This document shows, piece by piece, positions 4,691 through 45,442 of a DNA stretch of 64,000 nt (position 1 is the stretch's first letter; each line of letters opens with the position of its first letter). Under the pieces are notes generated by a model. That model was not told where the DNA came from. It made no database searches and worked only from the letters and a program-made list of their open reading frames with translations. Source of the DNA: Haplodiscus bocki (lineage: Eukaryota); contig OZ296651.1 in assembly GCA_965655095.1 (NCBI GenBank), positions 117,552,001 through 117,616,000 of the forward strand, written 5' to 3'. The position numbers were made by a program, and so were the translations under genes.

Positions 4691-4861
4691 AAGTTTATCA
4701 ATAACTCATCTTTAATAGTGAATACAATGTAAAGAGTAGGCGCCATTATATAACCAACGTACAAAATGACATCGTTTTGCTCGGCTTTCAAACTGTTCAA
4801 TTAACGGTAGCATCTAATTAATTCGAAAAAAGTAGTATCCAGAAAAATATATGCAATGTGG

Positions 4862-8123: not shown

Positions 8124-8165
8124 CGCCCTCTAGTAAATTGCACCGTTGCCTCCACTGGGGGGTCA
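8124..8165 (+). repeat. Junction motif J1 (A|B), core CCTCCACTGGG 8149-8159
   Basis: CGCCCTCTAGTAAATTGCACCGTTGCCTCCACTGGGGGGTCA; homology of A to D ends here. Confidence 0.9.
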
Positions 8166-17300: not shown

Positions 17301-20300
17301 GTTGTAAGCACCACCAGAGGCACTCTGTTATACTTACTATCCGCCCTGTAATTGCATTCTGTTTTTCATAGTCCCGCAGTTTCTTGTTTATAGTAGCTTG
17401 AACGCCAGCTATTTTTTCGTTTTCAAGCGGCTGTGTCAACACTTTCACACTGTCCTCTGCTTCACCCGCCAGGATATTTGCCGCTGCTCGAGATTCAATT
17501 CCAGCGGCATATTTTGCAGCGTAACGTGGTGCCATGTAGTCATCACAAATTTGGACATTTGTACTTGACTGTGTAAGAGCAAACAGAGCCGCATTAGTGG
17601 GAGAAAAATGTTCGTTACTCACAGTTGGATAATGGTGTTTTCCACCTACCAATGGTGCTTTAGCCTTTGGCGTTAAAGTATTTTCATCAATGTCCGCTAA
17701 ACCTAATTCTTGCAGCAAATCCCACGTTTCAGCGGAGAAATTGATGGGCACCTCTTTGAAGGAGAAACATTGCGATGCCGGATACTTAGGCACACGGCAG
17801 ATAGGCTGATTGAGTCTGTCTGTTTTCTTGTGGCATCGTTTACGGCCTTTGGTACAATTATGAACCTGATATTTTTGAAATAAATCGGCAAGCATCAAAC
17901 GGTCGCCCTTGGTTAATGTGGGACAACTGATTTCCAAGGCACCTAAGAACGTTTCTTTTGAGCAGCATATGCGAGATCGGACATCATTCGAAAATTTATC
18001 TTCCGGAGTACACAAAATTGCATGCAAGTGTGGAAACCCTGCAGTCTCCTCTTGCCATTCATATCTCATCCAAATGTGAGATACAGGTCCCAATGGACGT
18101 TCTGGTGATTTCTTTATCCATTCCATGACATATTGGGAAGCTCGATACCAGCACCTGAGCATTGGCATTAGTTCAGCTTGAATTGCAGCTGACAACACTT
18201 CCTTTGCTGTAGTATCTTCTGGGTAGAGTTCATGAAGTGCTTCAAAAATTTTTCTAATACCGGGATGGGTTGATTGCCCGCAAGTATATGTCACAAAGTA
18301 GGTTGGATTTTTCTCCCTGATAAGAGCAGCGAGTTCGCACACATTCTTCCGGCTTTCAGCACAGTCAAACTTGAAAGTTTCGGTTGATACAAATCTAGAA
18401 TTACTCGGAGCAGAACTCACTTCCTGCCAGCCGCGATTTAAAACAATTCGAACATCAGTTTTGTGAAGTTGAGTGTTCAGGAGACAGTCGAATACGTACT
18501 GCAGATATGCAGCATTACAAGAAGTTAATAGTGACCCATCTTTTATTCGAGTGCGAAGCATATCTTCCAAACCAGCGAAACCCAGATGTTTGTTGTACTT
18601 CGATGAATTGTATAGAGCTGCTGGTATCGCACCGTGAAAACTTCCGTTTTTTGACTGAGACCAGAAAATTGACGGGAAAAGCAACGCTTCCGGTTGAACA
18701 AGAGGCAACGAGGAAGTTGAGATAGCAGCAATATTTTCCACGAAACGTTTCTCTTTCAAGGTTAGACTGATGGGATTTCCCTTACGCCGATACAAAAGAT
18801 TGCATTGAGAGTTCAGAAGGATATGCAACGGTAATTTAAAGTTCTCTTCCTTACAACTACGTTGAACTGAAAGAGCTTTACTATCTTGACAAGGTTTTAC
18901 TTTGCCCATGTATTTCAAGTTCTCATCAATAAAGTCATCATCGTTTTTGCCGGGTAAGAGTTCATCTATGAGTGAGGAATTGCTGCTGGTAACAAAATCG
19001 ATTGTTTCTGCAGCTACCTCAGGGTCTGTTGATTCAAAAAATGGCATGTTACAAAATCTCTTAGGCCCACTTCTTGGATTAGTTGAAACTGAAGAATCAG
19101 ATTCAGAAGACAATTCCATTATCTCTTCCTTTGGGCATGGAGCAGCATTTATTAGGACACGTTTATTGGTCTCCTTCAGTCCTTCCTTGAAATGACTCTT
19201 GCATATACAGCTATGACATTGAAAGTATGGGCAGCGCAAAAACGAGCACAGGCCGCATCTGCAACGAAAAGTACTTTTCCTAAAATCTCTCGTCAGCGGT
19301 AAATCGTGCTTTTGACATATAAAGACGCCCTGACCTGTCAAAGTGCTCAAAAATTGCCACTTCAGATCGGCCAAGTCAACATTTCTTGTTTTTTCAAAAA
19401 TTGCAATAGTCCAGTAACCACGAAAGGCTGACTGAATAGCCTCGGTTGGATTGCCGTCAGTTTTCCTCGCGAATTTGCTGTTCTTTTCAATGATCCAAAA
19501 CCTTTGGAAATCTTTTCCATGCCGAACCAACCAACGTGGCTCGTTTTTAGGTCCTGCATCTTTTGATCCCATTGCAATCAATTCATATTCCTGGCCTGAG
19601 ACAACGAAGCTCAATGGAGGTTCATTTCTGTTTCGCAAATTATTGACGGACGTGGTAGTGAAAATGGCATGAGTTGTTACATCAGGAAACTCCAAATTTG
19701 ACGCACAAGTAATGGCTTTGCGTTCCAGCAGAGGGATATGGCGAATACTGTCACAACACATTTCAAGGAATTTCGCACCGAGGACGCAACAACATTGGGC
19801 ACTAGTCGAGGCTTCGTCTTCACTTTGACATTGTTGTAGTAATTTCTTTATGGATTCCTCCGATCGCCTCAGAAGTATCGTACTGTTTGCATTACGCATT
19901 GTCGTTGGGGAAATGAAAACATTTCTCAGCAAACAGAACAAGGGTTTCAGTGTCACAGGGTATTTGGGCGAATTAACTAACAAACGACACATCAATGGTG
20001 ACAAACAGGTTGCAGCTTGTACAAGCCACAAGACGTTATTGCAGTTATTGTTCAGTGGAGGGGGTGAACAACCGAAATCGTCAGTACCTTGTGCAAAAGA
20101 ATAACAACTTAAAGCTTCAACGTAGTTCAAATATTGCTTTTCACATTTGTCCACAATTTTGGCAACCTCAACGCAAGTTTCCAAGTCAGTCGAAGAGCTA
20201 TGCAACAAACAACTGGTCACATTTGCCATCTGTGGCTGATACTGAAGCATTCCGGAAGCAATATCATCAACAATTTTGCCGTCTCTCACCCATTGGCGAA

Positions 20301-22376
20301 TCAGAGTTTTAATATCGTCTCTGAAACAGCAAGAAATTCCTTCCGCCTGATACAAGATATCGCTAGTGATGTCCCAACGTGTTTTTCGCTTCAACCGCAC
20401 TGTACTTATGCCACTGTAAGAACCGATACTTTTCAGTAACTGGTATGTATGACTGGCGAAATTCGCTTTGATGTTTGTTATCCAGGAAATTGTCGGAGCT
20501 ACCACACTCAAACGCTCCTCGTGGAGTAGAGCTGTTCGTGTTAAAGAAGGATGGGAAGGAGGGTGAATGTAATGAACGGAGGACCCCTTTGAGTGCATGG
20601 AGCAAGCATGAACTATCAATCCTTCCGACTTGTCCACTCTCAATGTTGCTGCAACTAAGAATCGTCGCAGTGATAATGTAGGTACCAAGAAATCCGATCG
20701 CATCCCGCGCAGATGCAAGTGGCTAGAAGCTTGAAAAGATGTAAACTCCGGGTAAAATAGGTTCAAAAAGTGTTTGGCTGCAATGAATCCTACTTCTTCA
20801 ATGAAACACCAGCAACCGAAAGGGCACCTGACGTTGGGGTAAGGTTCCTCATCTAAAGCAAGTGCGATGCTTTCCTGCTCCAAACCTTTCAATAGTTGTT
20901 GAAAACGACGCAATCGAAGGGTTCCATCAACAGCACATTTGCCCTGGATTCTGCTTTTGTTCAGATATTGCTGCACACTAGATGAAAAACATCCAATAGA
21001 TCCCAGCCATTGCTGCCTTATTTCCACAGGCAATATTGCCAAAATGTTTATCTGTGTTTCTCTGGTTAATTTTATATCACTTAAGAGTGTGAAAAACACA
21101 GAAGGCCATGCCTCATTCCAGTCAATGCGCTCGAATGTGCAATAACATAAACACAAATTACATAGATAGACAAGGGATTCTCGAAGTCGATTTCCGAACA
21201 TTCTGTTCTTCAGTTCTGATTTCTTTTTGCTAACCAGCTTGAATGGATGATGGAGTGTTGGTTTTCGCATGCATTTTTGGCAGTAGTCAATATTGTCCGG
21301 AACAGAACTTTTGTCATGCGTTTCTCTATTGCTTTTATCAGTGCCTGACACACTGGAAGCAGAATTGTGAAGGTTCATCCATTCTGGTGAATGATTTCCC
21401 GTCATTTTCTTTCTGCCGTCAGTCGAAAAAGGGGAGAATGGCGGGTTGTAGTTGCAAGTTGCGGTGACACTAATGTGAGGCGAAGACACTTCTGGCATTG
21501 GAGAATGTGTTTCAAAAGTGTTAGCATCAGTAGTACTGAGCTTCGTTTTTTTCGTAGCTGGTTCTTCTGCTGTACCCTGAAGAGCTCTCAGTAACTGAGT
21601 CTCAGCTGCACAAATCCTCGAAGAGAATTCCAAGGAAGAGTTAACCATTGAAGTTCTTGGCGGACACACAATTTCATCAATTCTAATCGAAAAGAGCTCA
21701 TTGACTACTTCAAAGTGATTTGCACTCCTAGTTTGTTGAATGAAAATGCCTCGCCTGTCTGTATTCAAACAACATTCATATATCAACCAAGATTTCAAAG
21801 GCACATGGTATAAATAAACGTCAACTGAAAAAACTTGACAGAAAGTATAAATTTCTACGCAAGTCCCAAAAACACCATTTTCGCCCATTTTCGAAACACG
21901 GAGGTACTCGTCAACAGAAGCACAAGTCAAAATACGATGCTGATTGGGAAAATCGTCCGAGTGAATTACAGTTTGCAGGCTATTAGGGGGGAAATTGATC
22001 ATGTTCATGTTTGCAACAATTACATTTCGTATATTTTCACCACAATCCTGCATCAGACCGAGAGCAACAGCCAAAGCAGTAAAAAGGCAATTACCGTCAC
22101 AAGAATTGGAGTGACGTTCGCCGGGCGCAAAGAAGAAATGAAGCAATCATTTGGGATTGTACTTTGGTGATTCAAGAGAAAGTCACTCAACTCCAAATTA
22201 GCCAGGGAATGCAAAATATCTTTTCTTCGGGCAGGTGACACGGATATGGCAGTGTCTGGAATTTTGTATAACACACCTAAAGGCTCGTCAGCTTGAAGTT
22301 CTGTTTCAATATCTTTGACACATTCATGGTTCTTACCAGCAAATTGTCCACAAGCAATGCAACGTCGCCGCTTCAT
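14327..22376 (-). CDS. Zn-knuckle/OTU/HUH-Rep/PIF1 helicase/GIY-YIG polyprotein of B (two 1-bp frameshifts near 22100 and 14778)
   Basis: ORFs 22053-22376 + 14551-22146 (2531 aa) + 14327-14722. OTU DGNCLF...HFE; Rep YFVTYTC, RYEWQEETAGFPHLHAIL, YAAKY; helicase GPPGSGKT, IEEMSM, GDFFQLPP, TIHKTMG, QLYVVMSRVR; GIY-YIG CYLL..YIGST...RR.REHN...PW...GF...FE..W. Confidence 0.92.
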
Positions 22377-22663
22377 ATTTCAAAAATTGTCATAAGGAGC
22401 CAGTGACAACTTAACAGAAGGTCATGATCATGTCATTCCATATCTATTTGAAAAAGAAACGAGTGGTTCAAACTGGCGCAACACGTTTTTTAAACAATTT
22501 ATTTCCCTAATACACAAGCGGGAAAATACCTGACAGAAAAAAATTCTCTATGAATACATTCATACTGCAACTCAACTTCAGTGAAGGGATTAAATCATCC
22601 GAGCAAACACCCAACAAAACTGAGAAAAAATAGCATATCGAACGAAATGCATAAATCCTTTCA

Positions 22664-26161: not shown

Positions 26162-26203
26162 CGCCATCTGGTAAATTTCGCCGTCGCCTCCACTGGGTGG
26201 TCA
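26162..26203 (+). repeat. Junction motif J2 (B|S1), core 26187-26197
   Basis: CGCCATCTGGTAAATTTCGCCGTCGCCTCCACTGGGTGGTCA. Confidence 0.9.
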
Positions 26204-27249: not shown

Positions 27250-27255
27250 TGGTCA
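27206..27255 (+). repeat. Junction motif J3 (S1|C'), core 27239-27249
   Basis: CCAGTGGCCGCCAACTGGTGAATTTCACCGTTGCCTCCACTGGGTGGTCA; includes the GGTGAA-T-TTCACC inverted repeat. Confidence 0.9.
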
Positions 27256-29417
27256 GGGATGTAACCTTTTCGGAATCCGAGGCCGGGGAGGGTCCCGCTG
27301 CCGAGGTTAAATAATAATACGGTAAAAATACATCATACCGCATGGGGGGACTGGGAAGCCGATCTCGGGTCCTACCCGATAGAATTTATTCATATATTGC
27401 ATGCGGTCCTAAAATGGCGAGGTTAGAAAGGGGAAGAGGGAAAAAACTTTTTCCATTCACAACGTGATGAGTTATGACGGAATGATAGTGTTTTTTGCCC
27501 CAAATTTGAATTCTCATCGGTCTAGTTCCACATCTACCCGATACAATTGGCCCAAATTTTGTGTATGAGGCACAAATGATTTCAACAATTTGCATGCCAA
27601 AAATTTTTGGCCCAGCCCTTTTCGTTCGGGAAATAGGCGCTGATGAATTTTTAGATTTTTGCAAAAAATGCGTCATTCCGTCAATTTTGATCGCCAAAAA
27701 CAACTATTTCTCGTGCGCTAGCCTTCGCGAAGGGAGCCAAAACTGAACCGGCAATTGATTTTGATTCGCCAAAAATTTTCGGCCAAAATGCCGAAAAAAA
27801 ATGACGGATATGACGGGAAGAAAATGACGGAAATGACGGGTTTTTTTTTCAAAAAAAAAAATTTTTTTTCGGAAATGTTCTTTTTTTGCGCGTAGAATGC
27901 GCCTAACAATGTTACACAGTCTCTAGACCAGTGATTGTTGACAGTTTGACCGTAGTATACCTCGTATGAGATGTTTTTTTTTGGGAAACACAATTTTGAA
28001 CTGGTTAGGCATTACTGATGTAACCTACCATTTTTTCATTCATACATTTTTTTCGCATTAAGTACAATGTCATACATATTTTAAATCTTGGATCAGAGCT
28101 CTCTGTTGGTTGTAGAATGTAAAAGGTGCTTCCAATACGTGTCATGCCTTTTGAAAATATAAAAAAAAATTGGCAATTTTTTGCATTCAATTTCAATTAT
28201 TTTTGCAAGAAATTTTGAGTTTGTTGTATTATTGTTCTCAGCAAATTAGACGTTCTTTCGTTTTCCCTGTCAAGTTTGTTCGTAGAAACTAGCAGTGTAT
28301 GTTTTTTTCAGGGTTGCATTGCATGAGTTGAACTTCTTTTTGGGCAGTGTACGTTGGAGTGTGTTATGTATTTGTTAAACGTTGCAGTGCCTTACGTATT
28401 TGTTAACTGGTTGGACAGTTTATAGTTGGCGTTCAACAAGAATTACTTTGGCAATCGACAAAATTTACATGGGGACTACATTTACGCATGAGGTTGTTTT
28501 GTTTGGTGTCCAACCCCAACACTCCTCAGTCTGTTATGGTTTTGAAACGTTTTTAACTAATCGTTTTTTTTCAACTACTCAAAGTCTTGCTGAAATCAGC
28601 TATGCATGGTAGCTTCGCCAGTAAAAGGGAAGTCTAGAATGAAAAGGTTAATAAATTAATCGATGAAGTTCATATATTTATTTGACTGAATAATTTGAAT
28701 TCAATTGTTCCAATCCGAATGAAAAGTATGTATTTGGGTCAGTTTTCATCTTTACATAGGCTATCCTCTGAGATTTTGGAATTCTTTTCCACAGACTGCT
28801 TCGGTGTAATGCATCTGGCTTTTCAAAACTTTTCCTCCACTGAATTTTGTAGATGTAGGCTCTGCCACTGAGTGTTTGTACAAAATCTTGACGAATCCCT
28901 TTTTCAGAAAATGGTGTACTCAGTTTGTTTCACTTTGTTGATGATTTGCTCTTGCTTATCGACCGTTTTGGGAAAAGATGGACTTCTTCCTGTGAACAAT
29001 GTTGGACAAGTCTCCAGCTCAGACGTCACCGTTGGGGAATTTTATGTTTCGGTGTTTCTTCATGATCAGTTGCAGTTCTTGAGGACCGCTAATTCTGGTG
29101 ATGTTTCGATGACTCGCCGAATGTTACTTCTGTTTCTCTTGAGGAGTGGTATAGAAACTAATCCTGGTCCGCCGAAAAAAAAAGAAATTTTGCAGAGAGC
29201 CCAGGAAGTGCGTAACGTGTGGGCGTTTCTATGGCAGCAAGGACTGCTCTTGTTTCCATTCATGCATTGAAAGAGCCTCAGCTGGTGAAGACTATATTGA
29301 TCGGTCGCTGTCTTCTGCGCCTTTCAATAACCTGAGTCTTTTCTCGAACGTGCCGAATTCAAAAGCTTTTTCCTGCGCAAACGCTAATTTGACGAGAATT
29401 TGCATTGATTTTGGAAT
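27239..29417 (+). mobile_element. C': truncated, diverged copy of unit C
   Basis: Aligns to 30414-32551; homology stops at 29417, followed by an 11-nt filler. Confidence 0.85.
28911..29417 (+). pseudogene. Leader with 2A-like motif plus first polyprotein codons, truncated
   Basis: MVYSVCFTLLMICSCL...LLRSGIETNPGPP, then +1 frame FCREPRKCVTCGRF. Confidence 0.75.
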
Positions 29418-30424: not shown

Positions 30425-32044
30425 TGGTCAGGGATGTAACCTTTTCGGAATCCGAGGCCGGGGAGGGTCCCGCTGCCGAGGTTAAATAATAATACGGTAA
30501 AAATACATCATACCGCATGGGGGGACTGGGAAGCCGATCTCGGGTCCTACCCGATAGAATTTATTCATATATTGCATGCGGTCCTAAAATGGCGAGGTTA
30601 GAAAGGGGAAGAGGGAAAAAACTTTTTCCATTCACAACGTGATGAGTTATGACGGAATGATAGTGTTTTTTGCCCCAAATTTGAATTCTCATCGGTCTAG
30701 TTCCACATCTACCCGATACAATTGGCCCAAATTTTGTGTATGAGGCACAAATGATTTCAACAATTTGCATGCCAAAAATTTTTGGCCCAGCCCTTTTTGT
30801 TCGGGAGATAGGCGCTGATGAATTTGTAAATTTTTGCAAAAAATGCGTCATTCCGTCATTTTTGATCGCCAAAACCAACTTTTTCTCGTATGCTAGCCTT
30901 CGCTAAGGATGCCAAAACTGAACCGGCAATTGATTTCGGTTAACCAGAAATTTTCGATCGAAATGCCGAAAAAAAATGACGGATATGACGGGAAAAAAAT
31001 GACGGAAATGACGGATATTTTTGTGAGAAAAAAAAAATTTTCCCGGGAAAGGATCGCTTTGCGCGTAAAAAGCACCTAAAAACGCTGGAATTGATCGTTT
31101 TGCGCGTAAAATGCGGCTAACAATGTTTCGCAGCTTCTACACAAGTGGTCGTTGACACTTTGACAGTATTTTGTCTCATATGACACAGTTTTTTCAGCTA
31201 AACTCAAATTTAATCTAGTTAGGCGTTACTTATGTAAGTTATATTTTATAATCCTACATTTTTTCTCATCAAGTATAATGGCATACATAAATTATATCTT
31301 GGATCAGGGCTCTTTGTTGGTTGTAGAATGCAATAGATGCTTCCATTACGTGTCATTCATTTTGAAAAATAAAAATAAAAGTTTTGGCAATAAGTTTTGC
31401 ATTCCATTTCAATTGTTTGCCAGAAATTTTAAGTTTGTTATATTATTGTTCTGAGCATCTATGAGGTTCTTTCGTTTTCCTTGTTATGTTTTTTTGTAGA
31501 AATCAGCAGTGTTGGAACTTTCCACGTTTGCATTACGAGAGTTGAACCTCTTTCATGCCTTGTAAGTTGGAGTGTGTTATGTAATTGTTAATTTTTTTGG
31601 TCAGTTTATGGTTGGCGTTCAACAAGCACCACTTTGGCATTCGACAAGGAATATTTTGAGAGTATACTTACTCAGCAGTTTGTTTTGTTTGGTGTACAAC
31701 GCTAACAGTCCTCATTGTTTTGAATTTGAATCGTATTTAACTAATCATTTTTTCAAGTACTGCAAGTCTTGCTGAAATCACACAAGCATGGTATTTTCGG
31801 CATTAAAAACGAAAAGTCACTGAAGAGACAGTTAAAAATTCAACTGGTGAACTTCAAATATTCAATGCAGTGAATCTTTTGAATTCAAATGATCCAACTG
31901 TTTTTGAAGTTCCTTTCGATAGAAGATTTTTCTGTAACGCATGTGGCTGTTTCAAAGCCTTCATTGACTGAGTTTTATAGATGTAGGCGCCGCCACTGAG
32001 TGTTGATGGGTGTACAGAGTTTTGACGAATCTCATTTTCAGAAA

Positions 32045-32317
32045 ATGGTTTACTCACTTTGTTTAACTTTGTTGATGATTTGGTCTTCTTTATGGACAGT
32101 TTTGGAAAAAGATGGAATTGTTTATGTGAACAATGTCGGAGAAGTCTTCAGCTCAGACGTCACCGTTGGGGAATTTTGTGTCTCTTTGTGTCTTCAGGAT
32201 CACTTGCAGTTTATGAGGATCGGCAATTCTGATGAGGTTTCGATGACTCGCAGAATGTTACTTTTGTTTCTGTTGAGAAGTGGTATAGAAACCAACCCTG
32301 GCCCGCCAAAAAAAAAA
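32045..32317 (+). CDS. Leader peptide: hydrophobic N-terminus and 2A-like (StopGo-like) motif
   Basis: MVYSLCLTLLMIWSSLWTVL...MLLLFLLRSGIETNPGPP; ATG preceded by TTTTCAGAAA; only synonymous changes vs C' across the last 22 codons. Confidence 0.7.
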
Positions 32318-32321
32318 GAAA

Positions 32322-35300
32322 TTGTGCAGAGAGCCCAGGAAATGCGTAACATGTGGGCGTTTTTATGGCAGCAAAGACTGCTCCTGTTTCCAATCATCCA
32401 TGGTAAAAGCCTCAGCTGGTGAAGACTATATTGATCGGTCGCTGTCTTCTGCGCCTTTCAATAACCTGAGTCTTTTCTCGAACGTGCCGAATTCAAAAGC
32501 TTTTTCCTGCGCAAACGCTAATTTGACGAGAATTTGCATTGATTTTGGAATACCGTTTGTGGGGACACCACTGAACACACACTTGTTGGGTGCCATTTCT
32601 TTGAACGGTTTGTTTCCATCACAAACTCATCCTGTTCCAGGTGACGGTAATTGTTTGTTCTCTGCTTTAGCGGTGTCAATTGGGTCGCAAGCTTGGTATC
32701 ATTCAAAACTGCGCCAGCGTATTTGTTCGGCTTTACCCTCGCTAGATATTGCTCCGCATTTTTTGGAAATTTACACAACCATTGATAGAAATGTTGTGGT
32801 ACAGACAGCTTCAAACGTGAACGAATATTTGAATCGTTCCGGAATGCGATCAAATGGTGTGTATGGGACTTGTGTAGAGATCTATGGCTTCGCCCAAATT
32901 GCGGTGGTTGATGTTCACGTTTACCATTGCATGACAAAATTGTGGATAGTGTATAGCTATGCCGGAGATCGTGCTACAGTGGACGTTCCATCTGTGTTCC
33001 TGGTACATACTCATGCAGGTAATCATTTTGAAACGGTAGCAGTGTTGTCCGCAGAAATTCCAACTTCACAGCAAATTTTGCCTCATGGTTGCGTCCAGAC
33101 TTCATTCCCAGATACGGCATCACAATGCAATCTGATTTCCGCGTCAATTGATGCGAACACTTGTGCTCCAAAATGTAGTGCGTGTTCTGAATGTGATGTT
33201 TTGCCTCATTTGTGCAATGAAGGCCTCAAATCAAGCTCTCTTGGATTGGGCGGTATCCACAACGATCGTTTGTTGCCCGGCAACAATTTTTTAAGCGGAG
33301 CGAAAATTGATTGTGAAAAAAATGTTTCCAGTTGTGTTGCATTCAGCCCAGGCGTTGCCTTCAATTCCCTGCCTCAGCAGATCCATTCCACGCAATCCAC
33401 TTACAATGACACAGCCACAATGATAGAGGAGAAAAATGAGGTCAGTCAACATGCGGATGCCTCGGGTAACTCGTGTGTTTTCACGTCTACTTTTTCAGCC
33501 GACAAAGTACAAAGTACAGAAATGTGCAATAAATGTTGTCGAATTTCAACTTCTGCTTATCCTTTGGAATGGCAAAGTCTTGAAAAAAAAGCAGTCAAAC
33601 GAAGAAGATTTGGTTTGCGACCTACTGCTACATGTTTGGTCTGCCAAAGCTGTTTCAATTACAATAACGAGGGAAATTGTTGGCGGTATGCTTGGCCTTC
33701 CGTAATTCATTCGTTACTGAAGGATCTCAGCATTCGAGATGGTACTATGAAAAAAATTGTTTCGTTTTTACCTCCGGAAATACGTGACAGTTGGGCTATG
33801 TGTCAACATTTGCATCCTGCTGTTTCTATGGCTGATCGAGCTGTTCTAGTTGATATAACAAAAGGGAAGCAAGTTTTTCTGAACAAAGTAAATTGGGTGT
33901 TTTCACTGATTTGGAGGAAGCCTTAGATAGTGAATGTTATCCAAATTGTAGATGTCCCTTCGGTTGTTTCACATTTGTTGAAGAAACTGGTCAAATCGCT
34001 TTCAACCACCTTGTAAATGGAATTTTGCCTTCATTCACATCGTTCAACTCTGATTACTTGAACCATTTTCGAGGTGCAAGAGACGATTGGTTGAAACCAA
34101 TGAAAATTTTGGATGCGTTTGATGTTTCCGGCTTTGTCAGTGTTAATGAGACCTATGGTCTTGTTGTAGGAACTTGTGTGAATCATAGCAATGGGTCTCA
34201 GCTGCAGTATCTTCACCCGCCTGCACACCCGTTTTTAGGACGTTTCAGTGTTCCTACCAACGACAGGTTGGCATTTGTTGCTCCAAATTTGCGTATATTG
34301 AAGAACGCCAAAGCTAATTACGCTAGTCACACTTTCCAGTTGTTGAAAGCTGTTGGTAATTATTCAGGAATTAGCAGCATTCGGTTGAGCTCTAAACGCC
34401 GTTGGGATATTACTTCGGATTTGTTGAACAAGGCTGAATCCCAATGCAGTTTTTACCGCAGCGATATTCAATGTTTTTTGAATAACTTCGTGTCCTCTGG
34501 CGAAATAACTGATGAAATCCGACAAGGCATTCAAAGTAAACCCAACATTGAACAATCGGCTGCTTGTCTTTCTGCGTCAACAAGCGTGTCAATTCTAGAT
34601 ACTTATCGTTTATTCAGTTCACCTGGATTATCTGATGGACAACGCTTGTGCGCAAAATTCAAGTCTGTCACGTTCGCTCAGCCTCCCAATTTTTTTGGTT
34701 CTTCTCCTCCAAAAGTTTTGAGCTCCAAGACTTACTTTTTGTCGTTGCTGCAAACATTATTTTGTATCTCTCCTCAACTGTGTCGATCTTTATCAGATGC
34801 AACTGCTGTTGATAATGCGATATTTCCTTTGATGCATCTTTTGGACCCTGTAATTTTCCCAAGGTTGCGTCGTTGCAAAAGAAAAACTGTGGATGCTTCT
34901 ATGAGTGATGAATTGTCCAAGTTGTTTACTAGATTTCCGGAAAGTCCATCTCGTTGCCTCAGTTACGGTGTCTCACAATTTTGTGATGATGTCATCCATG
35001 AAGACCTAGCAAGCCGTCAAGATATTTTGCCTTTTTTGGAAGCTCAGGAGTTTGATGGTGTTAATGTTATACTTTTTTCATACGCGGGGGTAAATACTTT
35101 GCGTCCTAAATTCAAAGCTCCTCTGAACTTTAAAACTGGTCAGTCCGTTTTCGAGTTGAAATTTATTGCTACTGAAGGTTTAGGGAGTCGTAATAACATT
35201 CTTTTGAGGCATGGTGGGGTTTTCCAAGGTTTTTGGGCGTACAAAAGCAAAAGTATTTTCCCTGAACAGGTGAGGTTGCCTTGTGATACAGCGGTTGATC

Positions 35301-38300
35301 ATTTTATCAATGACTATTGGAACATTTGTGTCTACTATCGACAGACGTCTGCCGATATTGATGAGCTGCGGTCAAAATTTTTTGAAACACTGGCAGGCCA
35401 GGGAAAGTTTTTTTGTAAGAATCATTCTCTGTTACTCACCCGTGATTTTCCTTCCAGTGGTTTCAAATGCTCATGTGGTAGAAGTTCTTTTTTACGTTGT
35501 CCAGTGTCTGGCTGTGGGGCAAGTGTTTGCAGAATGCATTCTAAACAAGATAGTCAGGAGAGACAGTTTGTTTCCGATGATAACAAAGGGATCTGTAGTG
35601 AGTCCACGAAAATCTCAGCGTGCGATTCAAGTCAGTTAGATGATTGTGGCTATAGTCTTATTTCTGTTGATTCACAGAATCGGTCCAGATCGCCTACCAA
35701 CACGGTCACGTCCTCGGAATTTGTTACCAATCCTGGGCTTTTAGGGGAAGAATCTGAAGGATCGCATGTTTCGCTGCCTGTTACAACTGCTGCTGGAGAT
35801 TCAACTGTTGTTTTGCAACGTGATTTCCGAACAGACAGCACTGATTTTCAGCTCCCGCTTCATGTTTTTTTGAATGGCCAATGCGGTTTACTGAAAAGGA
35901 ATAAAGGGTCTCCGTTGTATGTTGCAGCTAGACATAAAAGAATTTTGGAGAACATCACCGCGACGTCGCCCCCCAACTCTGTCCCTTTGCTTCAGCCGGA
36001 AGCCATGTTGTTTCCGTCCATCTTTTGGCACCAAAACGCAGACGGCAGTTATTCTGGTGCAATACCTTCTCCCTTGTATAATGATCAGAAGCAAAACGAA
36101 TTGCTCGGTTTCGCAAGTTTAGAACAACATTCACAAACGCGCTTGAAAGATTCGTCTCTGTTGACGTCAACAGATCCTCGTTACGTCCAATACGTATTTG
36201 ACACAATTTTTAACCTACAGCTGCGTGTCAATGACACGAGAATCGTTTTGAACAGAGGTTGGAGTGAAGCGGCTCGGCAACGAAAGAATGTTCATGCCAT
36301 GCGAGAAGGTGCAATTTTTTTCGATCAATGTGATTCTCGGAAGAATGTTAATGAACTGGGAGCAGCTTTGAAAGAACGGCCAGCTACATATTTTTTCACT
36401 TACACTTGTGGGCAGTCGACGCATCCTGGCTTGAGAAAAATTTTCAGTGCGTTGGACGCAAAGTTTCCGAAAGACGTATGTAAAGAGGAGGACCGAAAAT
36501 CAGCGATTCAATCTGAAATGGTCACAATGTTGAGAGCGTGGGAGCGAGCTTCTCGTCTTGTCATGAAGTACATTGAAACGTCACCCGAGCGGCCACTGGG
36601 AAAAGTTGATAAGATTTGGTATCGATATGAGTTTCAAGATGAAGCTAGTGGATTCCCTCATGTACATGCTTTGATTTGGACGTCAGAAGATTGTTTTAGT
36701 GAAGCAGTAAGGTCTAGAGTTTGTTGCTCGGCAACAACTTTTCTGGGGAACTTATTGACTGAAGTTGGTTTGCACAATTATAGTTTGGATGATTTGACCG
36801 AGTTACGAGATCTATTCAACCGTTATCAATCACACAACTGTTTTAAAGCAAAGTTTCGTTGTCAGAAAAAAACTGACAGAATGGAGGAAAAAACCTGCCG
36901 AGTGCCGAAATATCCTCATTGTGCTGGCTTTACCTACAAATGTATTCACAAACAATTGTCGGAAGAAACGATAGCAGTTTTGAAAAAGCTCAAATTAGCT
37001 GAGTCGAGTGACTTTGATTGTTCGGTCACCATTGATCAGCGTCTTTGTGGCGGCAAGCATCATTATCCAACAGAAATTAAAACACACATTTCTCCGACAA
37101 ACGCCAAAATTTTTGCGCTCGTCCGATCTAGCAACAATCTACAAATTTGCGACATATACATGAGTAGCCGTTATTTGTCAAAGTATGTTGCAGGCGTGGA
37201 GGAACGCACCGAAGTTTCTATTTCTACGTCAAATGGAACCTATATGTACGACTTCCATGTTGATGAACAGGTGAACAACAAAATTGCTGGAGTGTACTTG
37301 ACCAATATGAACAAGGAGAGAAAGCCGAATAAAAAGTGTTTAAACTCTCGCATTTTGAGTCTGACAGAATCCGTGTGGTGGTCATTGCAATTTCCCTATG
37401 TCGTGACCAATATTCAGTTCATTCACGTTGTCACTGCCCCGCGAGAGAAACGGGCTGGAATAGTTATTGAACCGAAATGCAGACTTTCCAACAGCAATCA
37501 AAGTCCTCTTTTTGGGAGGCAGAGTTCAATTAGACACAGCAAAGGATTTCCTCCTCATCGTTGCTTCACGGAAAATCAGAAGTTGCTGATAATTGATGCA
37601 GAAAAAAGTTCCTTTTCTCCAGACAAAATAACCGTTTTTGGTGTACGTCCCCCCGAACTAACGTTTGTTCTCAAAGTGGAAAACTATTTCACTTGGTTTT
37701 GCCGCTTCCGAAAGCCCTTAAAGGTGGCACCAGAAAGTTTATTAAAGAAAAACATAACTAAATCACGTTGGGTGGATGGCCTCGGCTTTTGTGTATACCT
37801 TAATTCCTTGTATAAAGAAGACTTTTTCAACTACTGTCGCAACTTTTCTAGTGGGGTCCCTCGTTTCTCCACGCAATGTCTTGAAGCCATTGCATGTACA
37901 ACGAGCGATGCGAGTCACAAATTCATTTATCAGAAAAAGGTTCACCAAACTCAAGTAGTTTTGTCGAACGTTGTTCCGAGGAACACAACCAACTTTCTGA
38001 CCCATATTCTGTTGTCTCTTGGAGAATACGTAACCGAACTTGACATTTTTTCTCAATCGAATATGAAATCTGCGTTTTTTGAGGCCTCTTTGGCGAGCTC
38101 TCCTTTGGGATGCGAAGATTCCGAAATTATTGATGTTGATCGGCGCTTTGTGCTTGAACAATTACGTTATTATCCAGGATCATCTACTTTACTAGATCGG
38201 TTCGTTACGAGTGCCTATTTGTGCATCCAGCAGGCAGCACAAAATAATTCAGTCATTTTTCCGAGCTCAACACCGCGAGTTTTAGAACAGAGTATTGTGG

Positions 38301-40342
38301 AGCAGAGTAACAGCAACATTTCTGACGAATTGGATGCGCAAAAAGAGAGTCTTCTTCGTGCAGTTGCCAATGGGGGTTATGTTGGTTTACCAACGTATGC
38401 CCAATTGATGAACGCCACCTTAGCACGTCCTTTGATTTGGAGCCAAAAGATACATAAAGCAGGCAACCAGACTGACGAATCTTTGCATGACCAACAGAAG
38501 ATATTGGATTACGTTTGTTCTTTGTACGATAACTATTGTTCTTGTACCACTGACTTTATTAAACATCAATTCATAGTTGGTCCACCGGGTACAGGAAAAA
38601 GCTATGTGCTGATTCATTGTGTGATTGCGGCTCTAGCTAGGGGGCTGAGATGCGTCATAACTAGTGTCGCTGCTGAGAGAGCTTCAGTTTTCGGCGGAAA
38701 ACACACAAACGCTTTAATCCCTTTCCCCGTCATTCAAAATGAAACGGTGAGTCATCTAGTTTCGCATGCTTTGAACAGTCTTGCCCGAGATCCTGTTAAA
38801 TTTACTATTTTGGAGAAGTTGGATGTTTTTTTTGTCGAGGAAGTTTCAATGATTTCAGCTGAACTTTGGTCCGCGATGGACAATGTGTTGCAAGCCGTAT
38901 CTGAAAACAATCTTCCTTTTGGAGGAAAGATTGTTATTTCCACAGGGGATTTCCGTCAACTTCCGCCTCCTACGGGAACATTCCTTTTGCTGAGCAACTC
39001 GGTGTTAGCTAATTTTGAGCTTCAGTATTTGAAGCACTATGTGAGAATGCAGAACCAGCAAAGAAAGAGGCTTCTGGATTTGCTGTCTGAATATCCTGTG
39101 ACAGAGACATGCATTAAGATGTGTTGTGACATCATCGAGAAATTTTGTAAATTCGTAAGCACGTGGTCGGAAGTCCCTTTGGATAGCTTGAGAGTGTTCA
39201 GTACGAGAGTTGCTGAAAAAGAGGCTGTGGAAGAGAGAATATCTTTTGTGACAACACATCAAAACATACAGAGTGTGTCTTTCCATTGCAAGGATGAAAT
39301 GTCAAATACAGGAACCCAGAATTGGGTTACCGCAACAGCACCCGTCAGCAAGTTCCTCAACCGAAGTTGCCTTGAGCCAGAGTCTTTGTTTATACATGTT
39401 GGGTGTGTATTGCGCTTAACTTGCAATTTGCCATCGCTGAAACTGTTCCAGGGACATTTGTGTTTAGTTGAATCGTTCGATGAAATTGATCGCCATATTG
39501 TTGTCAGAGTTGCTCCAGACGGAGTAAGGTCTGTGTCATCTAACAACCCTGACGTTGCTTCCTGGAGGCTTGTAGTTATTCGTAAAAGAATTGGCGTTCT
39601 CCATAAGTATAACAATTTCACCGTTTGCAGACGTGTTCAATTTCCTTTGAAAATGTATGTGGCTTCAACCGTTCACAAAATAATGGGGGACACTGTTCCA
39701 TGCTTGGCAACACAGATTGTTGGTGGTAAAAAATTCTCATACTGGCTGAAAGAGCAGCTTTATGTAGTTGTTAGTCGGGTCACTGATCTTTCCCACATAA
39801 CGTTTGTCGGTGACAAGCAGCGGACACTTGATGCAATTAATCTTCTTTGCCGCAAAGATAGCCATTTGGTTCCTTTGATAGATAACTGTTTGTCGTCCCG
39901 TGGCAGGTGTAATTCCGGTGTTTCAACGACCCAAACATTTTATCCCTTTCCCTTACGTGTTTTTGATGTACCACTTTCGGCAATTGGTTACTGTTATTTG
40001 TTGGTGAGTGTTAAACATAGGGAACTTTTTTACATTGGAAGCTGTAAGCAGTTGCGGCGACGATTGCAGGAGCATAATTCGGGAAATGGGAGTTCATTTA
40101 CAAAGCCTGTTGAAAGAAGACCCTGGGCTCTAGTTGCTTACGTGACGGGCTTTTCAAACGCCGTTTCACGAAGCCGTTACTCTTTTGAACAGGATTGGCA
40201 AAGAGCAATGCTTAATTGGAATTATTCGAATGTGAAGCTAACCCTTGAAGATTACTTGTCAGAGTGCCATGTTCTTATGGATTCGTATAAAGTTACAGGC
40301 ATCGAAACAGCCCTGGAATGTGAATGCATGCGAAACTTGTAA
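32322..40342 (+). CDS. Zn-knuckle/OTU/HUH-Rep/PIF1 helicase/GIY-YIG polyprotein of C (frameshift near 33890)
   Basis: ORFs 32322-33926 (GDGNCLFSAL, HFE) and 33893-40342 (YFFTYTC, RYEFQDEASGFPHVHAL, YLSKY, GPPGTGKS, VEEVSM, GDFRQLPP, QLYVVVSRV, in-frame CYLL..FYIGS...RRRLQEHN...RPW...GF...FEQDW). Confidence 0.92.
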
Positions 40343-41664
40343 TGTTTTTTCGATTGTTCATATGTATTTTTCTTCATAGGTTTAGACTTTTGTAAAACTA
40401 CCATCGAGAAAACCCACCGTATTTGCAAGTATTAATTTGTCCGAAGCAAAATTTTCAGCAACTTTTTTTGTAGCCGATCATGTTGGTTGATTTGAATGAT
40501 TGCCATTGTTTGTTGCTAGTTATGAGCCAACCTTTGTAAAATTGGACGTGTTTTAGTTGTTAACAGATGATTTTTGTAACAGGATTTTCTTTTGTTTCTC
40601 TAACACTTTTTTACTCGACTCACACAGTAACTTTATTTTCGTGGTTCAACTTTTATACTCTGACACTTTATGAAATATCCTCTTTAAATGCTTTACACGG
40701 TAATTAAAAGATTCGGAAGATCATTTTTTGCAACAATTTGTTTTCACGTGCGTCTAAAGTTTCAGTGTGGAGCTGTTTTAATACTTTCGGGAGGCTATCT
40801 CATTGATTCACAGAAATATCACTTTCACTTTTTGTTCAGTGACCAAGGCAAAAATTTAAGTAACAAAATGTTAACTGGAAAATAATGCGAAAGGTTTTCG
40901 ACGAACTGACAATAATGTTTATGTTTTTTTCAGTGTCTCACTGACTCTGACCTGTTATGGATGTTATTTCTGACTCAATTAATGTTGTATACCTGACGGA
41001 AGCAAATTTGGTTTTATATTTTTTTGTACTGGTTGCTCAGCAACCGCCAACGTGATTTCCGAATTAGTATGTTGTTTGCTAGATGAACGTACTTGAGTTG
41101 GTTGTCCAGCAAGCCATATTCCACAAACTGGCCTGTAAACATGAGATGATAGCAGCTGAATTCTTTAGTTGCGCAACACTTTTCAAACCCAAACCATATT
41201 CCTTGTTACGGGAGATGAGAAAACTTTGTATTTCAAACTATTATTTGTTGTATGAATTATATTATGTGAAGCATTTTTCTTATGGTTACTTTCGCGCGTG
41301 AATTGAACAGTGGTTCACCACTATTTAATTTTTTGGCAGAGATTAGAGAAGGGCTGTTATTTTGTGCATCTGGCATTGTTTGAGTAATTTTTTCATCCTT
41401 GGGTGTATTTGGCAGTTTTATTTTGCCAAAAACGTTTTTTTCCAAAGAAAATTTCTTAATTTTCACCGTCAGGACTGCTCTGTAGCTGTGCAACGGGTGT
41501 GCATTTTTTCTTGAATCAGTCCTCTGTCTAATAAGTAAATGTCATGAACAAAAGTAAAATCTGATTTATTTGTTGGGTTTTTCAATTCTTAATTGAATGA
41601 TATAAAATATGCTTTGTTCGTTTGTCTGCTTTGATGATACATTGTCCTTCTGTTTTCGGTTGTT

Positions 41665-42261
41665 ATGTCTGAATATTTTGTTTTGGCGGCCTCGTCTCTT
41701 TATTGGGCAGCACAGGAAAGACCCCACCTCTTTGATCCTTTCAGGCCACATTTTTGCGCAATTTCGGGTGCTTCACTCAATAACTACCAGCCACAAAAAA
41801 ACATATGTTATCTTCTTGAATCGAATTTCTACAACACGAATGGAAAAAAGGTTATCATTTGGCATGATGCTGTCAATAACTCTTTGTCAAGCAAGAAGAA
41901 TCCGGCAATGAGTCCTGGAGCCTTTTTCAGTAGAATGGCTTATGTGAGAAAATTCAATGTCGTGGCATTCACCTACTTGCCTAGATCTGGAGCACAAAAT
42001 TTAAACAACGTTTTGAAAGACTGTCCAACAGGAATTGTTTTTCTCAAAATGAATTCGATTCTATCGAAACGGTACAAAAATTTGATCAATGAAGAAAAAG
42101 ATCTGCACCTGAATAGCCTGCTAGAAAATCATATGCTGTCCAGAACACTGCTAAACAACGGCTTGGAGGACTTGACTTTGCGTCGGTCCCGGAATAGACA
42201 CAATAATCTTCAAAACAGAGTTAGTGTTTTGATTTTTGGTTCCATTTTATTGATGATTTAG
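41665..42261 (+). CDS. Divergent SGNH/GDSL-fold protein (putative)
   Basis: Block-like motifs VLAASSL, AISGASL, VIIWHDAVNNSL and KDLHL in SGNH order; same position as the clearer SGNH gene of D. Confidence 0.55.
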   Translation: MSEYFVLAASSLYWAAQERPHLFDPFRPHFCAISGASLNNYQPQKNICYLLESNFYNTNGKKVIIWHDAVNNSLSSKKNPAMSPGAFFSRMAYVRKFNVVAFTYLPRSGAQNLNNVLKDCPTGIVFLKMNSILSKRYKNLINEEKDLHLNSLLENHMLSRTLLNNGLEDLTLRRSRNRHNNLQNRVSVLIFGSILLMI

Positions 42262-43250
42262 AGGAAGAGAAGGGATATATATTTCCGATGGTTTTTTGAA
42301 GGAAACGCTGAACGTTAGTGATTACTACGTTGACGCATTTAACATTCGAACCAACGGACTGCATACAGATTTCCTGCATGACACTTCCATGCTATTCAGT
42401 TTCAATGTTTTAACGTTTTTTCGGGGAACCAAATCCGAAGTTGGAAGTGTGTGACCGGAGAGTTTGTCATGTTTCAATAACAACACTTGCTTGTTTTCAC
42501 GATTTATTGTGAAAACAAGCAAGTCATTCGCAAACTTTTTCAAGAATGTGTTTTCTTACAGGTCCGAAGAAACAGAGGTGGGTTGCACGAATCGGCATAG
42601 GCATCAATTACCGCCAGCTCCAAGAAGATATCTTGATGAGTAGAAAACCATCGGTGTTTTAACACCGCATGAACATTTTGAGTTCATTTCTGACATTACT
42701 TCCTTTTATTGTTTCATTGCACCATTTGTGCTGCCATGTGGTTTTTGAATTTCAAAAATGAATTAGCGACCTTCCCTTGATTTAGTTGGAGTATGATTTT
42801 ACTTTTGATGATGTTATTTGAAGCTGACTGTTTTTGTAGCATTTTGTGTAGAGCCTTCTGGCGTCCAAATTTTACTACTGGAATTGTTGGAAATTGTTTT
42901 GTTTTGAAGATAGAAATAGTTCAGAATAATTCGTGTGTAATGTATTACCTCTATTTCAATTTGTATGATTCCAGTTTGTGAACAATTTTTGACATGGAAT
43001 GGAAAGCTGTTTTTGAGGACACATCCGGTAAATGGCTGCAGATTGAGGTGGTCTAAGGTGAAGTGTGCCATAGACGGCAGTGAAAAGTTGTTAGGCTGTC
43101 ATTGAAAAAAAACAGAAAATCTCAAGTTTTTGTTGACAAAGTTACAATGTGCCTTTTTTTGTTTAAACTAAATCAGACTGCAAATCTTGACTTGTCTTTT
43201 TACCGTATAATTTCCTTATTTGGAACACATCCTGTTGCATTTTTTAAGAA

Positions 43251-44243
43251 ATGAATAGACAAGTAACTGTGGCTGAAGTTACAGGAGAAGGTTTTTTGCG
43301 CAACAGCCAGAACACTGTATTAAGGGGCATAGTTTTGGTCCTGAAGAAGAGCGATCGGCCACTGCAGTTGTTCAGACCTCAAACAACAAAGTTGAAGCGC
43401 CCACTTCCTGAAGGGACATATGACAGAATGGTCATTATTGGCCAATGGAACAGTAAAGACTGTTTTGTCGTCATCTCAGCTTCAGCGCAGAAGTCTGCTA
43501 AACTTTTTTCGGATAGTCATCTGACTGTTGGTTCTGTTGTAGAGGTAACAGAGCCTATCTATTCGAACACGTGTTTGGGCAATGACCGAAATAATCCGAT
43601 TATTGAAAGTCATCAGGCTATCGTTGTTATCAACAACGTAACCAATGAGGATTTCCCGCCAATTCCTATTATTTCATTACCCAGCACACCCGCAATGTTC
43701 CACTACACTCTGAACAATAGAAATTTGTTGTTTTTGCATGGAAACATTATATCTCCTACCTGTTCTGGAAGTATGTGCGACCGTCGTATTCTCAGAAATG
43801 AAACGGTGTGCGCTTGCCTACAGAAGAACTCAGTTTCGTCGTGGACTGTCGCCGCACGCATCCTTTCTAGAGACGTGGAAGAGGAAGCGGACGATCCCTT
43901 GAGCGGAGACATGACACAGAGTCATCAGTTGGCATCGTTTTTTTGTAGCAATGATGTTCTTCGCTTGCCAGCTAGCTCGGTTGAATTGAATCTGTTGCGT
44001 GAATCAATAACTAGGGTGACAGAGTATGTCAACGATAATGGTGGTTGGAGAATATCTGGTTACAGCAAATCGAGTGTCAGTGATGAGTCAATTACTCAGG
44101 CTGTTCATCATGTGAGAGTTTGTCGTCTTATTCCAGCTGTTGTAATCCCGAACAACTTGAAGTACGCTATCGGTAATGCTCGGCAGCCGCCCAATCGGCC
44201 GCCTCCACTACAACAAGCCAACCCAAATGTTCAGCATGATTGA
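43251..44243 (+). CDS. Conserved 330-aa element protein, possibly OB-fold plus Zn finger
   Basis: Intact ATG-to-stop ORF; clear homolog in D (RPLQLFRPQT, CLGNDR.NPI, CSG..CDRR...CACLQK, N..GWR.SG). Fold is inference. Confidence 0.8.
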   Translation: MNRQVTVAEVTGEGFLRNSQNTVLRGIVLVLKKSDRPLQLFRPQTTKLKRPLPEGTYDRMVIIGQWNSKDCFVVISASAQKSAKLFSDSHLTVGSVVEVTEPIYSNTCLGNDRNNPIIESHQAIVVINNVTNEDFPPIPIISLPSTPAMFHYTLNNRNLLFLHGNIISPTCSGSMCDRRILRNETVCACLQKNSVSSWTVAARILSRDVEEEADDPLSGDMTQSHQLASFFCSNDVLRLPASSVELNLLRESITRVTEYVNDNGGWRISGYSKSSVSDESITQAVHHVRVCRLIPAVVIPNNLKYAIGNARQPPNRPPPLQQANPNVQHD

Positions 44244-45399
44244 TTTTTTGTGGATTTTTCAAAACACCGCAGCCATACGTGCTTTTCATAGTCGGATGCC
44301 AATGAACACATAGAAAATGTTCCTTTTTGAAAAACTTATGATAATTGCAATTCTGTACTGCCTCGGATAAAATCAATGCATTTGCCTCAGTTACTCAATT
44401 TTACGTGATCTCTTTTACATATGAACTTTCTTTCCACATATGATAGAATGAAGGAAACAACCGTTGTTGTCTCACCTAAATAAATTTTGTTTTTGTGGCT
44501 AGTATCCTGCATTGTACTCTGTCAGTTACTTCAATTTACTTCAGTAATCCACATTGAAAGTTGTATGAGATTTCAGTATGCTTTTCTATGTCAGTAATGC
44601 ACTTTGGAAGTAATTGTCTTCAATAGAAGTAGAGTCAGTGGTGTCAGTAGCTCTTGATGATATCATTTTCCTTATGAGTTTGATTTGGTCCACTTTATTA
44701 AGATAATGTTTACTTCAACGTTATTTTCCTTCTAAACATCTTAGAGTGGAACTTTTGGTGCGTGATTTGCCTTGTGTTGAAAAGATTTAGCCATAAACTT
44801 GGAGAGACAAGTCTACATACTTTGGTAGTGTTCAAAGTTTCAAAGTAATATTCACTATGAATGGTACTGATTTATATTTTGGCACCCCTGTGAACTCGTT
44901 TCGACTTAGAAAGTCACTGGTACGTTCAGAGAAGTCTATTTTTTTTGTTCAAAAAATCGCACGGACTAAACGGAGATGAACTTCATGTTTCAGTTGAGAC
45001 AGCAAAGTACGTTGAACAAATACGGGAATGTGTGAGCCTCGTTGTGCGATGAAGACAGATCGATGTTTTGGGAGCTTTATCAAGTGGAAAAACGTGTAGG
45101 AGCTTTGGAACTGTTCATGCACAGGTGATTGAACTTGCCAGTGTTTCTATGTTTCCTCTGATATATTATTTGTCGTTCTTTCACCAGGTACTTTTCGATA
45201 GCGTTTGGAAATCATATTTTTACTCAATTGTTTGTCTTTGATAAAGTCAGGTCCTATTGTCAGTCTTGGCTAAAATTGTTTATTTTTCGAACGGTTTTGG
45301 CTTCTGTTCTGTTAATGTTGAAACTTTTTTCCTTTTTTTACTTTTTTTTCAAAAATCTTTTTGAATTGACGTTCACAGCTTCCTGTTAATCAATCACTG

Positions 45400-45442
45400 G
45401 GCCTTTCTAGCGAACGGTAGCCTTTCCTCCACTGGGTGGTCA
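45400..45442 (+). repeat. Junction motif J5 (C|S3), core 45426-45436
   Basis: GGCCTTTCTAGCGAACGGTAGCCTTTCCTCCACTGGGTGGTCA; upstream part diverged, core invariant. Confidence 0.88.

Follow-up and report, generated by a model that had tools for sequence, protein, structure and literature searches.

A transposable element in the window, the whole 64-kb stretch of DNA analysed here, raises the question of whether one gene can join two recoding events, namely a 2A-like (StopGo) peptide and, directly behind it, a change of reading frame at a run of adenines. The original prediction described such a double recoding from two diverged copies of the element, C and C'. Its 2A half is upheld by the selection on the peptide, by an expanded consensus and by in-frame homologs, while its frameshift half fails. 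The offset is very probably a one-base slip in an unstable A9 run, most likely by replication slippage or assembly error. This slip, together with an in-frame 2A that would split off a short leader peptide from a Helitron-like transposase, is an account of the locus that appears fairly likely on sequence grounds. The features of the two copies are as follows:

30425..45436 (+), approximate ends: Helitron-like element of about 15 kb (copy C), with ends common to eight dispersed copies and the window
32035..32041 (+): TTTTCAG, a putative acceptor-like site 3 nt upstream of the likely start codon, present in C and C'
32045..32302 (+): leader with a hydrophobic N-terminus; it has 86 residues, counted from the likely start Met through the Gly of NPG
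32240..32305 (+): 2A-like (StopGo) peptide SMTRRMLLLFLLRSGIETNPG followed by P, with a pN/pS of 0.03, a fit to the expanded core, and homologs
32282-32305 (+): core octapeptide GIETNPGP; skipping is predicted at the 32302/32303 boundary
32303..32390 (+): basic NLS-like stretch, which reads P-PKKKK where the copy is in frame, plus the zinc knuckle; pN/pS 0.05
32308..32317 (+): A10 run, lysine codons plus one extra A, breaking the ORF in copy C; A9 in in-frame copies
32325-32390 (+): CxxC..CxC zinc knuckle, lying within what is predicted to be the N-terminus of the transposase after release
32637..32954 (+): OTU-like cysteine protease domain (Pfam PF02338, E 0.0012, under the curated cut-off)
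33890..33900 (+): second one-base break in copy C, near 33894, unrelated to the A-run
36392..37186 (+): Rep (HUH, two-tyrosine) motifs FFTYTC, PHVHA and YLSKY (motif search; PF14214)
38558..38968 (+): Pfam-matched part of a PIF1-like helicase (PF05970, E 1.4e-13)
39986..40210 (+): C-terminal GIY-YIG nuclease domain (PF01541, E 1.7e-09), with the ORF end at 40342
27250..29417 (+): copy C', a 5' fragment of an older subfamily, truncated upstream of the OTU domain
29148-29171 (+): 2A core of copy C', with G+A9 at 29174-29183

The letters on which the double recoding was founded are as described. In copy C, LLRSGIETNPGP-P at 32270-32308 is followed by A10 at 32308-32317, and in copy C', G29174 is followed by A9 at 29175-29183. 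The frame of CREPRKC..CSC is +1 relative to the leader in both copies, and no opening ATG of that frame is common to them. A recount of the changes between C and C' gave the same figures, with eight synonymous and no replacement changes in the 22 codons MTRR..GPP (seven and none if counted one codon earlier, as SMTR..GP) and five synonymous and no replacement changes in CREPRK..CSCF. Synonymous-only changes on both sides of the A-run are predicted by one continuous ORF with a recent indel. The +1 frame was also said to be that of CxxC and OTU in both copies, which is correct for C and incorrect as regards OTU in C', where the copy ends at about 29417. The OTU match exceeds the curated cut-off of PF02338 in two homologs, P0003 and P0008.

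A search of the element's own genome returned 37 matches, and 35 readable copies were left once two old, decayed ones with an eroded motif were set aside. With A9 (or G+A8 in the C' type) taken as in frame, 23 copies are in frame, nine are +1, two are -1 and one is -4. The offset that had been held to be conserved is carried by 9 of 35 readable copies only, and 23 restore the frame with A9 or G+A8, which contradicts frameshifting or slippage as the mode of expression; a majority of frame-restoring copies is the outcome that the original prediction itself had named as speaking against it. From 36 ten-kb stretches fetched, 33 were aligned (two decayed and one truncated being omitted), and eight of these full-length copies have a single unbroken ORF of 2,761-2,780 codons from the leader to the end, comprising in order the leader, 2A, the basic stretch, the zinc knuckle, OTU, Rep, PIF1 and GIY-YIG. 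All eight are in frame across the A-run, and an offset conserved in intact family members, the mark of a programmed shift, was not found among them. A ninth copy (L044) is whole apart from a single base deleted in the leader. In its normal form the gene consists of a single ORF of approximately 2,765 residues, in which the A-run encodes lysines.

Copy C has its own peculiarities. The break near 33894 is private to it among the 33 aligned copies, and the base at this break is at full depth in all four short-read runs. Over 32000-40342 it is a mosaic: roughly the first 400 nt of the ORF match the young subfamily (L046) without a difference, and most of what follows shares 98-99% identity with the C'-type copy L067. 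Copy C would be either a recombinant or an assembly chimera.

The A9 run is the longest homopolymer of the 8,340-nt ORF, and its length among 21 young copies is nine in 15, ten in five and eight in one. Every 7-run measured is invariant, including two A7 runs of the young copies, and a T8 run is unchanged in 20 measured. The non-coding 9-runs of the element vary likewise (9, 9, 9, 10 and 10 for A9; 9, 10, 8 and 8 for T9). Copies with +1 have in-frame sisters in three subfamilies, namely the young subfamily, the L060/L061 pair and the C' type, the in-frame sister of C' being L032/L067 with G+A8; SNP support among the young copies is too low for an exact count of slips. The +1 form exceeds the -1 form (nine vs. 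two), and in the local cluster around the window all five copies are +1. Copy C and its neighbour L039 share A10 at a non-coding run too, so the +1 excess comes in part from local copying.

Short reads came from four runs, none of them registered as RNA; they represent no more than two samples from a single study and may include the source of the assembly. In each of the four, main-subfamily contigs spanning the A-run read A9, and the read depths at 32308 sum without leaving a remainder for the A10 form. As contigs can drop variants, the missing A10 fits an assembly error for this form and does not prove it; such an error is possible for the main-subfamily A10. The C'-type +1 form is bridged by a 214-nt short-read contig in run X1, and in X3 and X4 it is represented by shorter contig pieces, at a greater depth than the in-frame C' form (in X4, 73.7 vs. 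20.3). The C'-type +1 form is real DNA. Pure assembly error as a full account of the offset was considered and is ruled out by this bridging contig.

Programmed +1/-2 frameshifting or polymerase slippage after the 2A as the normal route of transposase expression has several points to recommend it. Nine of 35 copies in three subfamilies are +1, the +1 copies L039 and L040 show no other break across 2,684 codons, and the C'-type +1 form is found in short reads. Long A-runs can slip in transcription, and A10 copies might yield a little in-frame mRNA. As regards a downstream stimulatory structure, the 80 nt 3' of the run have a single folding energy of -19.5 kcal/mol, which counts neither for nor against it. 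Against programmed frameshifting, the majority of copies and all eight unbroken ORFs are in frame, and -1 and -4 forms exist too. Both assembled C'-type +1 copies are cut off at the same point, which makes their frame irrelevant. Seven homologous proteins, known as protein sequences only, read through in one frame, and no conserved shift site was found in the diverged relative compared at the DNA level, a second Helitron family with at most A6 at this place in its in-frame loci. In cardioviruses, 2A is followed by -1 frameshifting at a conserved, protein-stimulated shift site; the likeness lies only in the order of a StopGo site and a shift-prone run. In the present element, the run length is polymorphic and the main product stays in frame. 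That frameshifting is the normal expression is highly improbable, and as a programmed event it is rejected on the copy census, the unbroken ORFs and the run-length variation. The frameshift is ordinary homopolymer decay in a minority of copies.

With the slip set apart, the 2A-like peptide remains to be accounted for. GIETNPGP was regarded in the original prediction as off-consensus for its missing D. However, the StopGo core was widened to (D/G/C/N)(V/I)ExNPGP in PMC12846837, with the skip between the last two residues, and the octapeptide meets it, G at the D position being an accepted variant there. In the viral sequences of the same source, G is found at p12 as often as D, and its supplement has the viral LLRSGIESNPGP on record among StopGo sequences. 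The AGIESNPGP of infectious flacherie virus is tabulated with approximately 99% cleavage (PMC8623073). The core alone is described as insufficient (PMC3708506), and residues upstream of it matter (PMC12846837). A non-random, leucine-rich upstream stretch of the class A type is present (MLLLFLLRS), and the same type is found in P0003-P0008 and P0033. The class B arrangement given in PMC12338488, with an invariant upstream Trp and an EEGIE-type centre, was not found, no Trp occurring within the 18 residues before NPGP.

The 2A-like peptide is under strong purifying selection. From seven subfamily representatives, in pooled pairs that are not independent, the 22 codons of the peptide gave a pN/pS of 0.03, the most constrained segment tested, followed by 0.05 for the basic stretch with the zinc knuckle, 0.16 for Rep and 0.21 for the helicase, while the leader gave 0.64-0.66 (weak, near-neutral selection) and a linker 0.98. 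Purifying selection sets in abruptly at the MTRRM codon. Genome-wide, the G[VI]ExNPGP pattern at the DNA level has 114 matches vs. none in the reversed control.

Homologous transposases carry the motif in part. Six of 29 Rep-region matches (P0003-P0008; 52-67% identity in the Rep region) have it in frame near the N-terminus, and a further motif-bearing transposase, P0033, came from a profile search. Altogether it occurs in 8 of 177 related proteins, seven of them outside copy C's family, vs. 0.04 expected by chance, and always inside the first 160 residues. Among proteins with at least 800 residues ahead of the Rep region it is present in 7 of 86, and among the distant representatives (P0036-P0180) in none. 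A chance motif was considered and is ruled out by the 114 genome matches vs. none and by the eight proteins vs. 0.04 expected. E-x-N-P-G-P is invariant in the seven homologs and the second Helitron family, and variation is seen at core positions one (G, C, N) and two (I, V, L), in motif-bearing lineages that are only about one-third identical in Rep. The 12 residues after the Pro include four to seven K/R in all seven families tabulated, followed by a CxxC or CxC knuckle. It is quite likely that the transposase contains a working StopGo.

The relatives without 2A begin differently. P0010, P0012, P0037 and P0158 start as Met-basic-CxxC, and so do two 2A-less families of the window (at 4666 and 22376). 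The leader therefore has the look of an added piece, and skipping would give back the earlier N-terminus, although in some of the 2A-less proteins just a first exon may have escaped the gene caller. The 2A-less Helitron families of the window, whose ORFs open with Met-basic-CxxC, lie at 2915-4705 (-), 14551-22379 (-) and 51703-59912 (-); a break near 22100 interrupts the one at 14551, and the one at 52-60 kb is decayed. Rep-region trees (quick IQ-TREE and FastTree, without a monophyly test) placed the 2A-bearing proteins in two distant branches, one with P0001 and P0003-P0007, P0008 lying nearby, and another with L105, L109 and P0033. Repeated gain of 2A and ancestral presence with losses are both possible histories. 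That a Helitron-like lineage uses a working StopGo in two distant branches, cuts off an added leader and so regenerates the ancestral N-terminus is somewhat likely. The OTU/Rep/PIF1/GIY-YIG lineage is large, with 948 representative proteins by the Rep region at E up to 0.001; its close members have weak or no Helitron_like_N scores, and it may be a poorly described branch of Helitrons.

Translation would start at the ATG at 32045, behind the splice-acceptor-like site, in a good start context, and the leader frame is open in all subfamilies. StopGo would then skip the Gly-Pro bond to give the 86-residue leader and a separate transposase, which would begin P-PKKKK-zinc knuckle, the N-terminus that 2A-less relatives obtain from the start Met. 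Dosage control would be the most likely role, in which incomplete skipping or drop-off would limit the nuclear transposase, and the hydrophobic leader would possibly send the unskipped product to the ER. The latter part is weakened by P0004 and P0005, which start without strong computed hydropathy. Retrotransposon 2A-like peptides mostly lowered protein abundance in the reporter screen of PMC13405545. The leader of P0003 has the same length (86 residues to the Gly) and is similar outside the 2A (0 of 1,000 shuffles reach its score), and no similarity was found to the leaders of P0004-P0008, so that one of six homologous leaders matches. A search with the N-terminal 335 residues returned only copy C's own family.

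Two other readings keep the slip and differ in what the peptide does. The motif might not skip at all and instead serve as a hydrophobic helix, as a peptide that is signal-like or dampens translation, or as a sequence at which ribosomes pause. In the screen of PMC13405545, leucine-rich eukaryotic 2A-like peptides often cut protein abundance whether they skip or not, and some 2A-like sequences of non-LTR elements are reported as inactive in PMC3708506; yet the invariant E-x-N-P-G-P behind two variable positions tracks the StopGo core and not a generic helix, which leaves a non-skipping peptide rather unlikely. The peptide might also be a functional 2A whose translation starts at MTRRM (32243), giving a 20-residue signal-like 2A with the upstream 'leader' untranslated. 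The abrupt onset of purifying selection at this codon would suit such a start, as would the Met found 12-18 residues ahead of the core in P0033 and the second family, the one-base leader deletion in the otherwise whole L044, and the precedent of the sea-urchin NLR signal-2A (PMC4981915). This Met is missing in P0003-P0008, however, the leader is open in all subfamilies with a good start context after the acceptor-like site, and it agrees with P0003 in length and sequence, so a start at MTRRM is very unlikely. The preferred reading is a 2A-released leader with its putative start at 32045.

Rep (HUH, two Tyr) fused to a PIF1 helicase is the hallmark of Helitron-like elements and was found here (PF14214, PF05970 and motifs). 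The element is Helitron-like by its transposase, and its ends fit neither HLE1 nor HLE2 as outlined in PMC11417382 and PMC3627910. The HLE1 set of a 5' TC, a 3' hairpin with CTRR and insertion between A and T was not found: the left end is TGGTC, the flanks of eight copies show no A-T site, and the right end CTGGG is no more than CTRR-like. The ends of one copy contain no HLE2-type short terminal inverted repeat of at least 11 nt with at most one mismatch, and the flanks are not T-T as in HLE2 insertion. The Rep-region trees include no named HLE1/HLE2 reference transposases. Both junctions of copy C are CCTCCACTGGG/TGGTC (the slash marks the join), not the A-T or T-T of HLE1/HLE2, and the element occurs in tandem arrays with a spacing of 15 kb. 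Head-to-tail joins at CCTCCACTGGG/TGGTC belong to several families (window positions 26190, 27242, 30417, 45429, 46485 and 63358), with a similar junction site at 8152 and further loci L122-L137, and a GC-rich hairpin-like stretch lies approximately 35 nt downstream of them. At most dispersed copies the insertion site resembles the junction that the copy's own two ends would form, a pattern reminiscent of origin-specific rolling-circle insertion. Two more ORFs in the 3' part of the element, 41638-42261 (+) of 207 codons and 43248-44243 (+) of 331 codons, had no match in a Pfam search.

Known systems resemble this element in part. HLE1/HLE2 and HelenSM92 share Rep with PIF1, an upstream OTU, a GIY-YIG add-on and tandem arrays, but no 2A leader appears in the descriptions of them in PMC11417382 and PMC3627910; a GIY-YIG in a Helitron-like family had already been reported in the former. 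The 2A of APE-type non-LTR elements, as set out in PMC3708506, is likewise leucine-rich, near the N-terminus of the main ORF and ahead of the catalytic domains, at 40-80 residues there compared with 20-160 in the Helitron-like transposases. The present case differs in that the 2A-like peptide sits in a rolling-circle DNA transposon encoding Rep, PIF1 and GIY-YIG, its core has no D, and a basic stretch and zinc knuckle come directly after it. Viral StopGo sequences with G at p12 and an upstream motif ending in (A/G/S)G have the core G-I-E-x-N-P-G-P in common with it (PMC12846837), and G-type viral sequences share the hydrophobic upstream run ending in R-S or R-A (PMC12846837, PMC8623073). The setting is unlike theirs, being a cellular DNA transposon and not the polyprotein of an RNA virus. 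In the sea-urchin NLR signal-2A of PMC4981915, an N-terminal hydrophobic 2A could split the product between compartments, and the same could hold here. P0033 has a short form like this signal-2A, whereas the family of copy C has 65 more residues before the 2A and a basic NLS-like stretch downstream of it.

The same genome contains other 2A-bearing elements. Among 30 inspected loci of the 114 with G[VI]ExNPGP, two belong to the copy-C family, six to the second Helitron family, 11 are LINE-like and 11 integrase-linked, with Pfam confirmation for four loci, two of the Helitron type and one each of the LINE and integrase types. Of ten loci fetched for the second Helitron family (L104-L109, L112, L113, L115, L116), eight carry the motif in frame. 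This family has an acceptor-like site 6-9 nt ahead of the ATG and the 2A-like peptide right after it; its transposase is split over three ORFs, and GT-AG intron-like gaps were seen in L105. In the integrase-linked type, G(V/I)ExNPGP is upstream of a PHD-like finger and an rve integrase (L110:8333-9625 (-), Pfam E 1.6e-10), and similar loci are L076, L082, L091-L095, L097, L098, L101 and L102; this element is possibly of the Polinton or Ginger type. In LINE ORFs, 2A-like peptides lie upstream of PHD, endonuclease and RT (L120:6298-9756 (-), L138-L157), and the LINE-type GD[VI]ExNPGP pattern has 38 genome matches vs. none in the control. The LINE-type 2A is of a known kind, 2A-like peptides near the N-terminus of non-LTR ORF2 having been described (PMC3708506).

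A full-text literature search combining Helitron with 2A-like or 2A peptide, with Repbase and subscription papers outside its range, found no paper on 2A in Helitrons. 'Helitron' and 'PIF1' do not occur in four supplements of PMC12338488, 'helicase' does not occur in the main text of PMC13405545, nor does 'Helitron' in that of bioRxiv 2026.09.24.754024. The credible StopGo signal in a rolling-circle DNA transposase would be a new setting for a known recoding signal. Cellular 2A skipping has been described in non-LTR retrotransposons and a few gene families. If the signal works, and with the integrase-linked 2As of the same genome, DNA mobile elements would join RNA viruses and retroelements as users of skipping, and a cis-acting control of dosage or targeting would be probable. 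That a DNA transposon has a 2A selected more strongly than Rep suggests a need common to mobile elements in general, untied to reverse transcription, such as limiting or redirecting the element's enzyme, and sister families with and without the leader offer a natural comparison. For annotation, gene callers place the protein start downstream of the motif (P0002, P0032), and 2A searches confined to D overlook the G-type motif.
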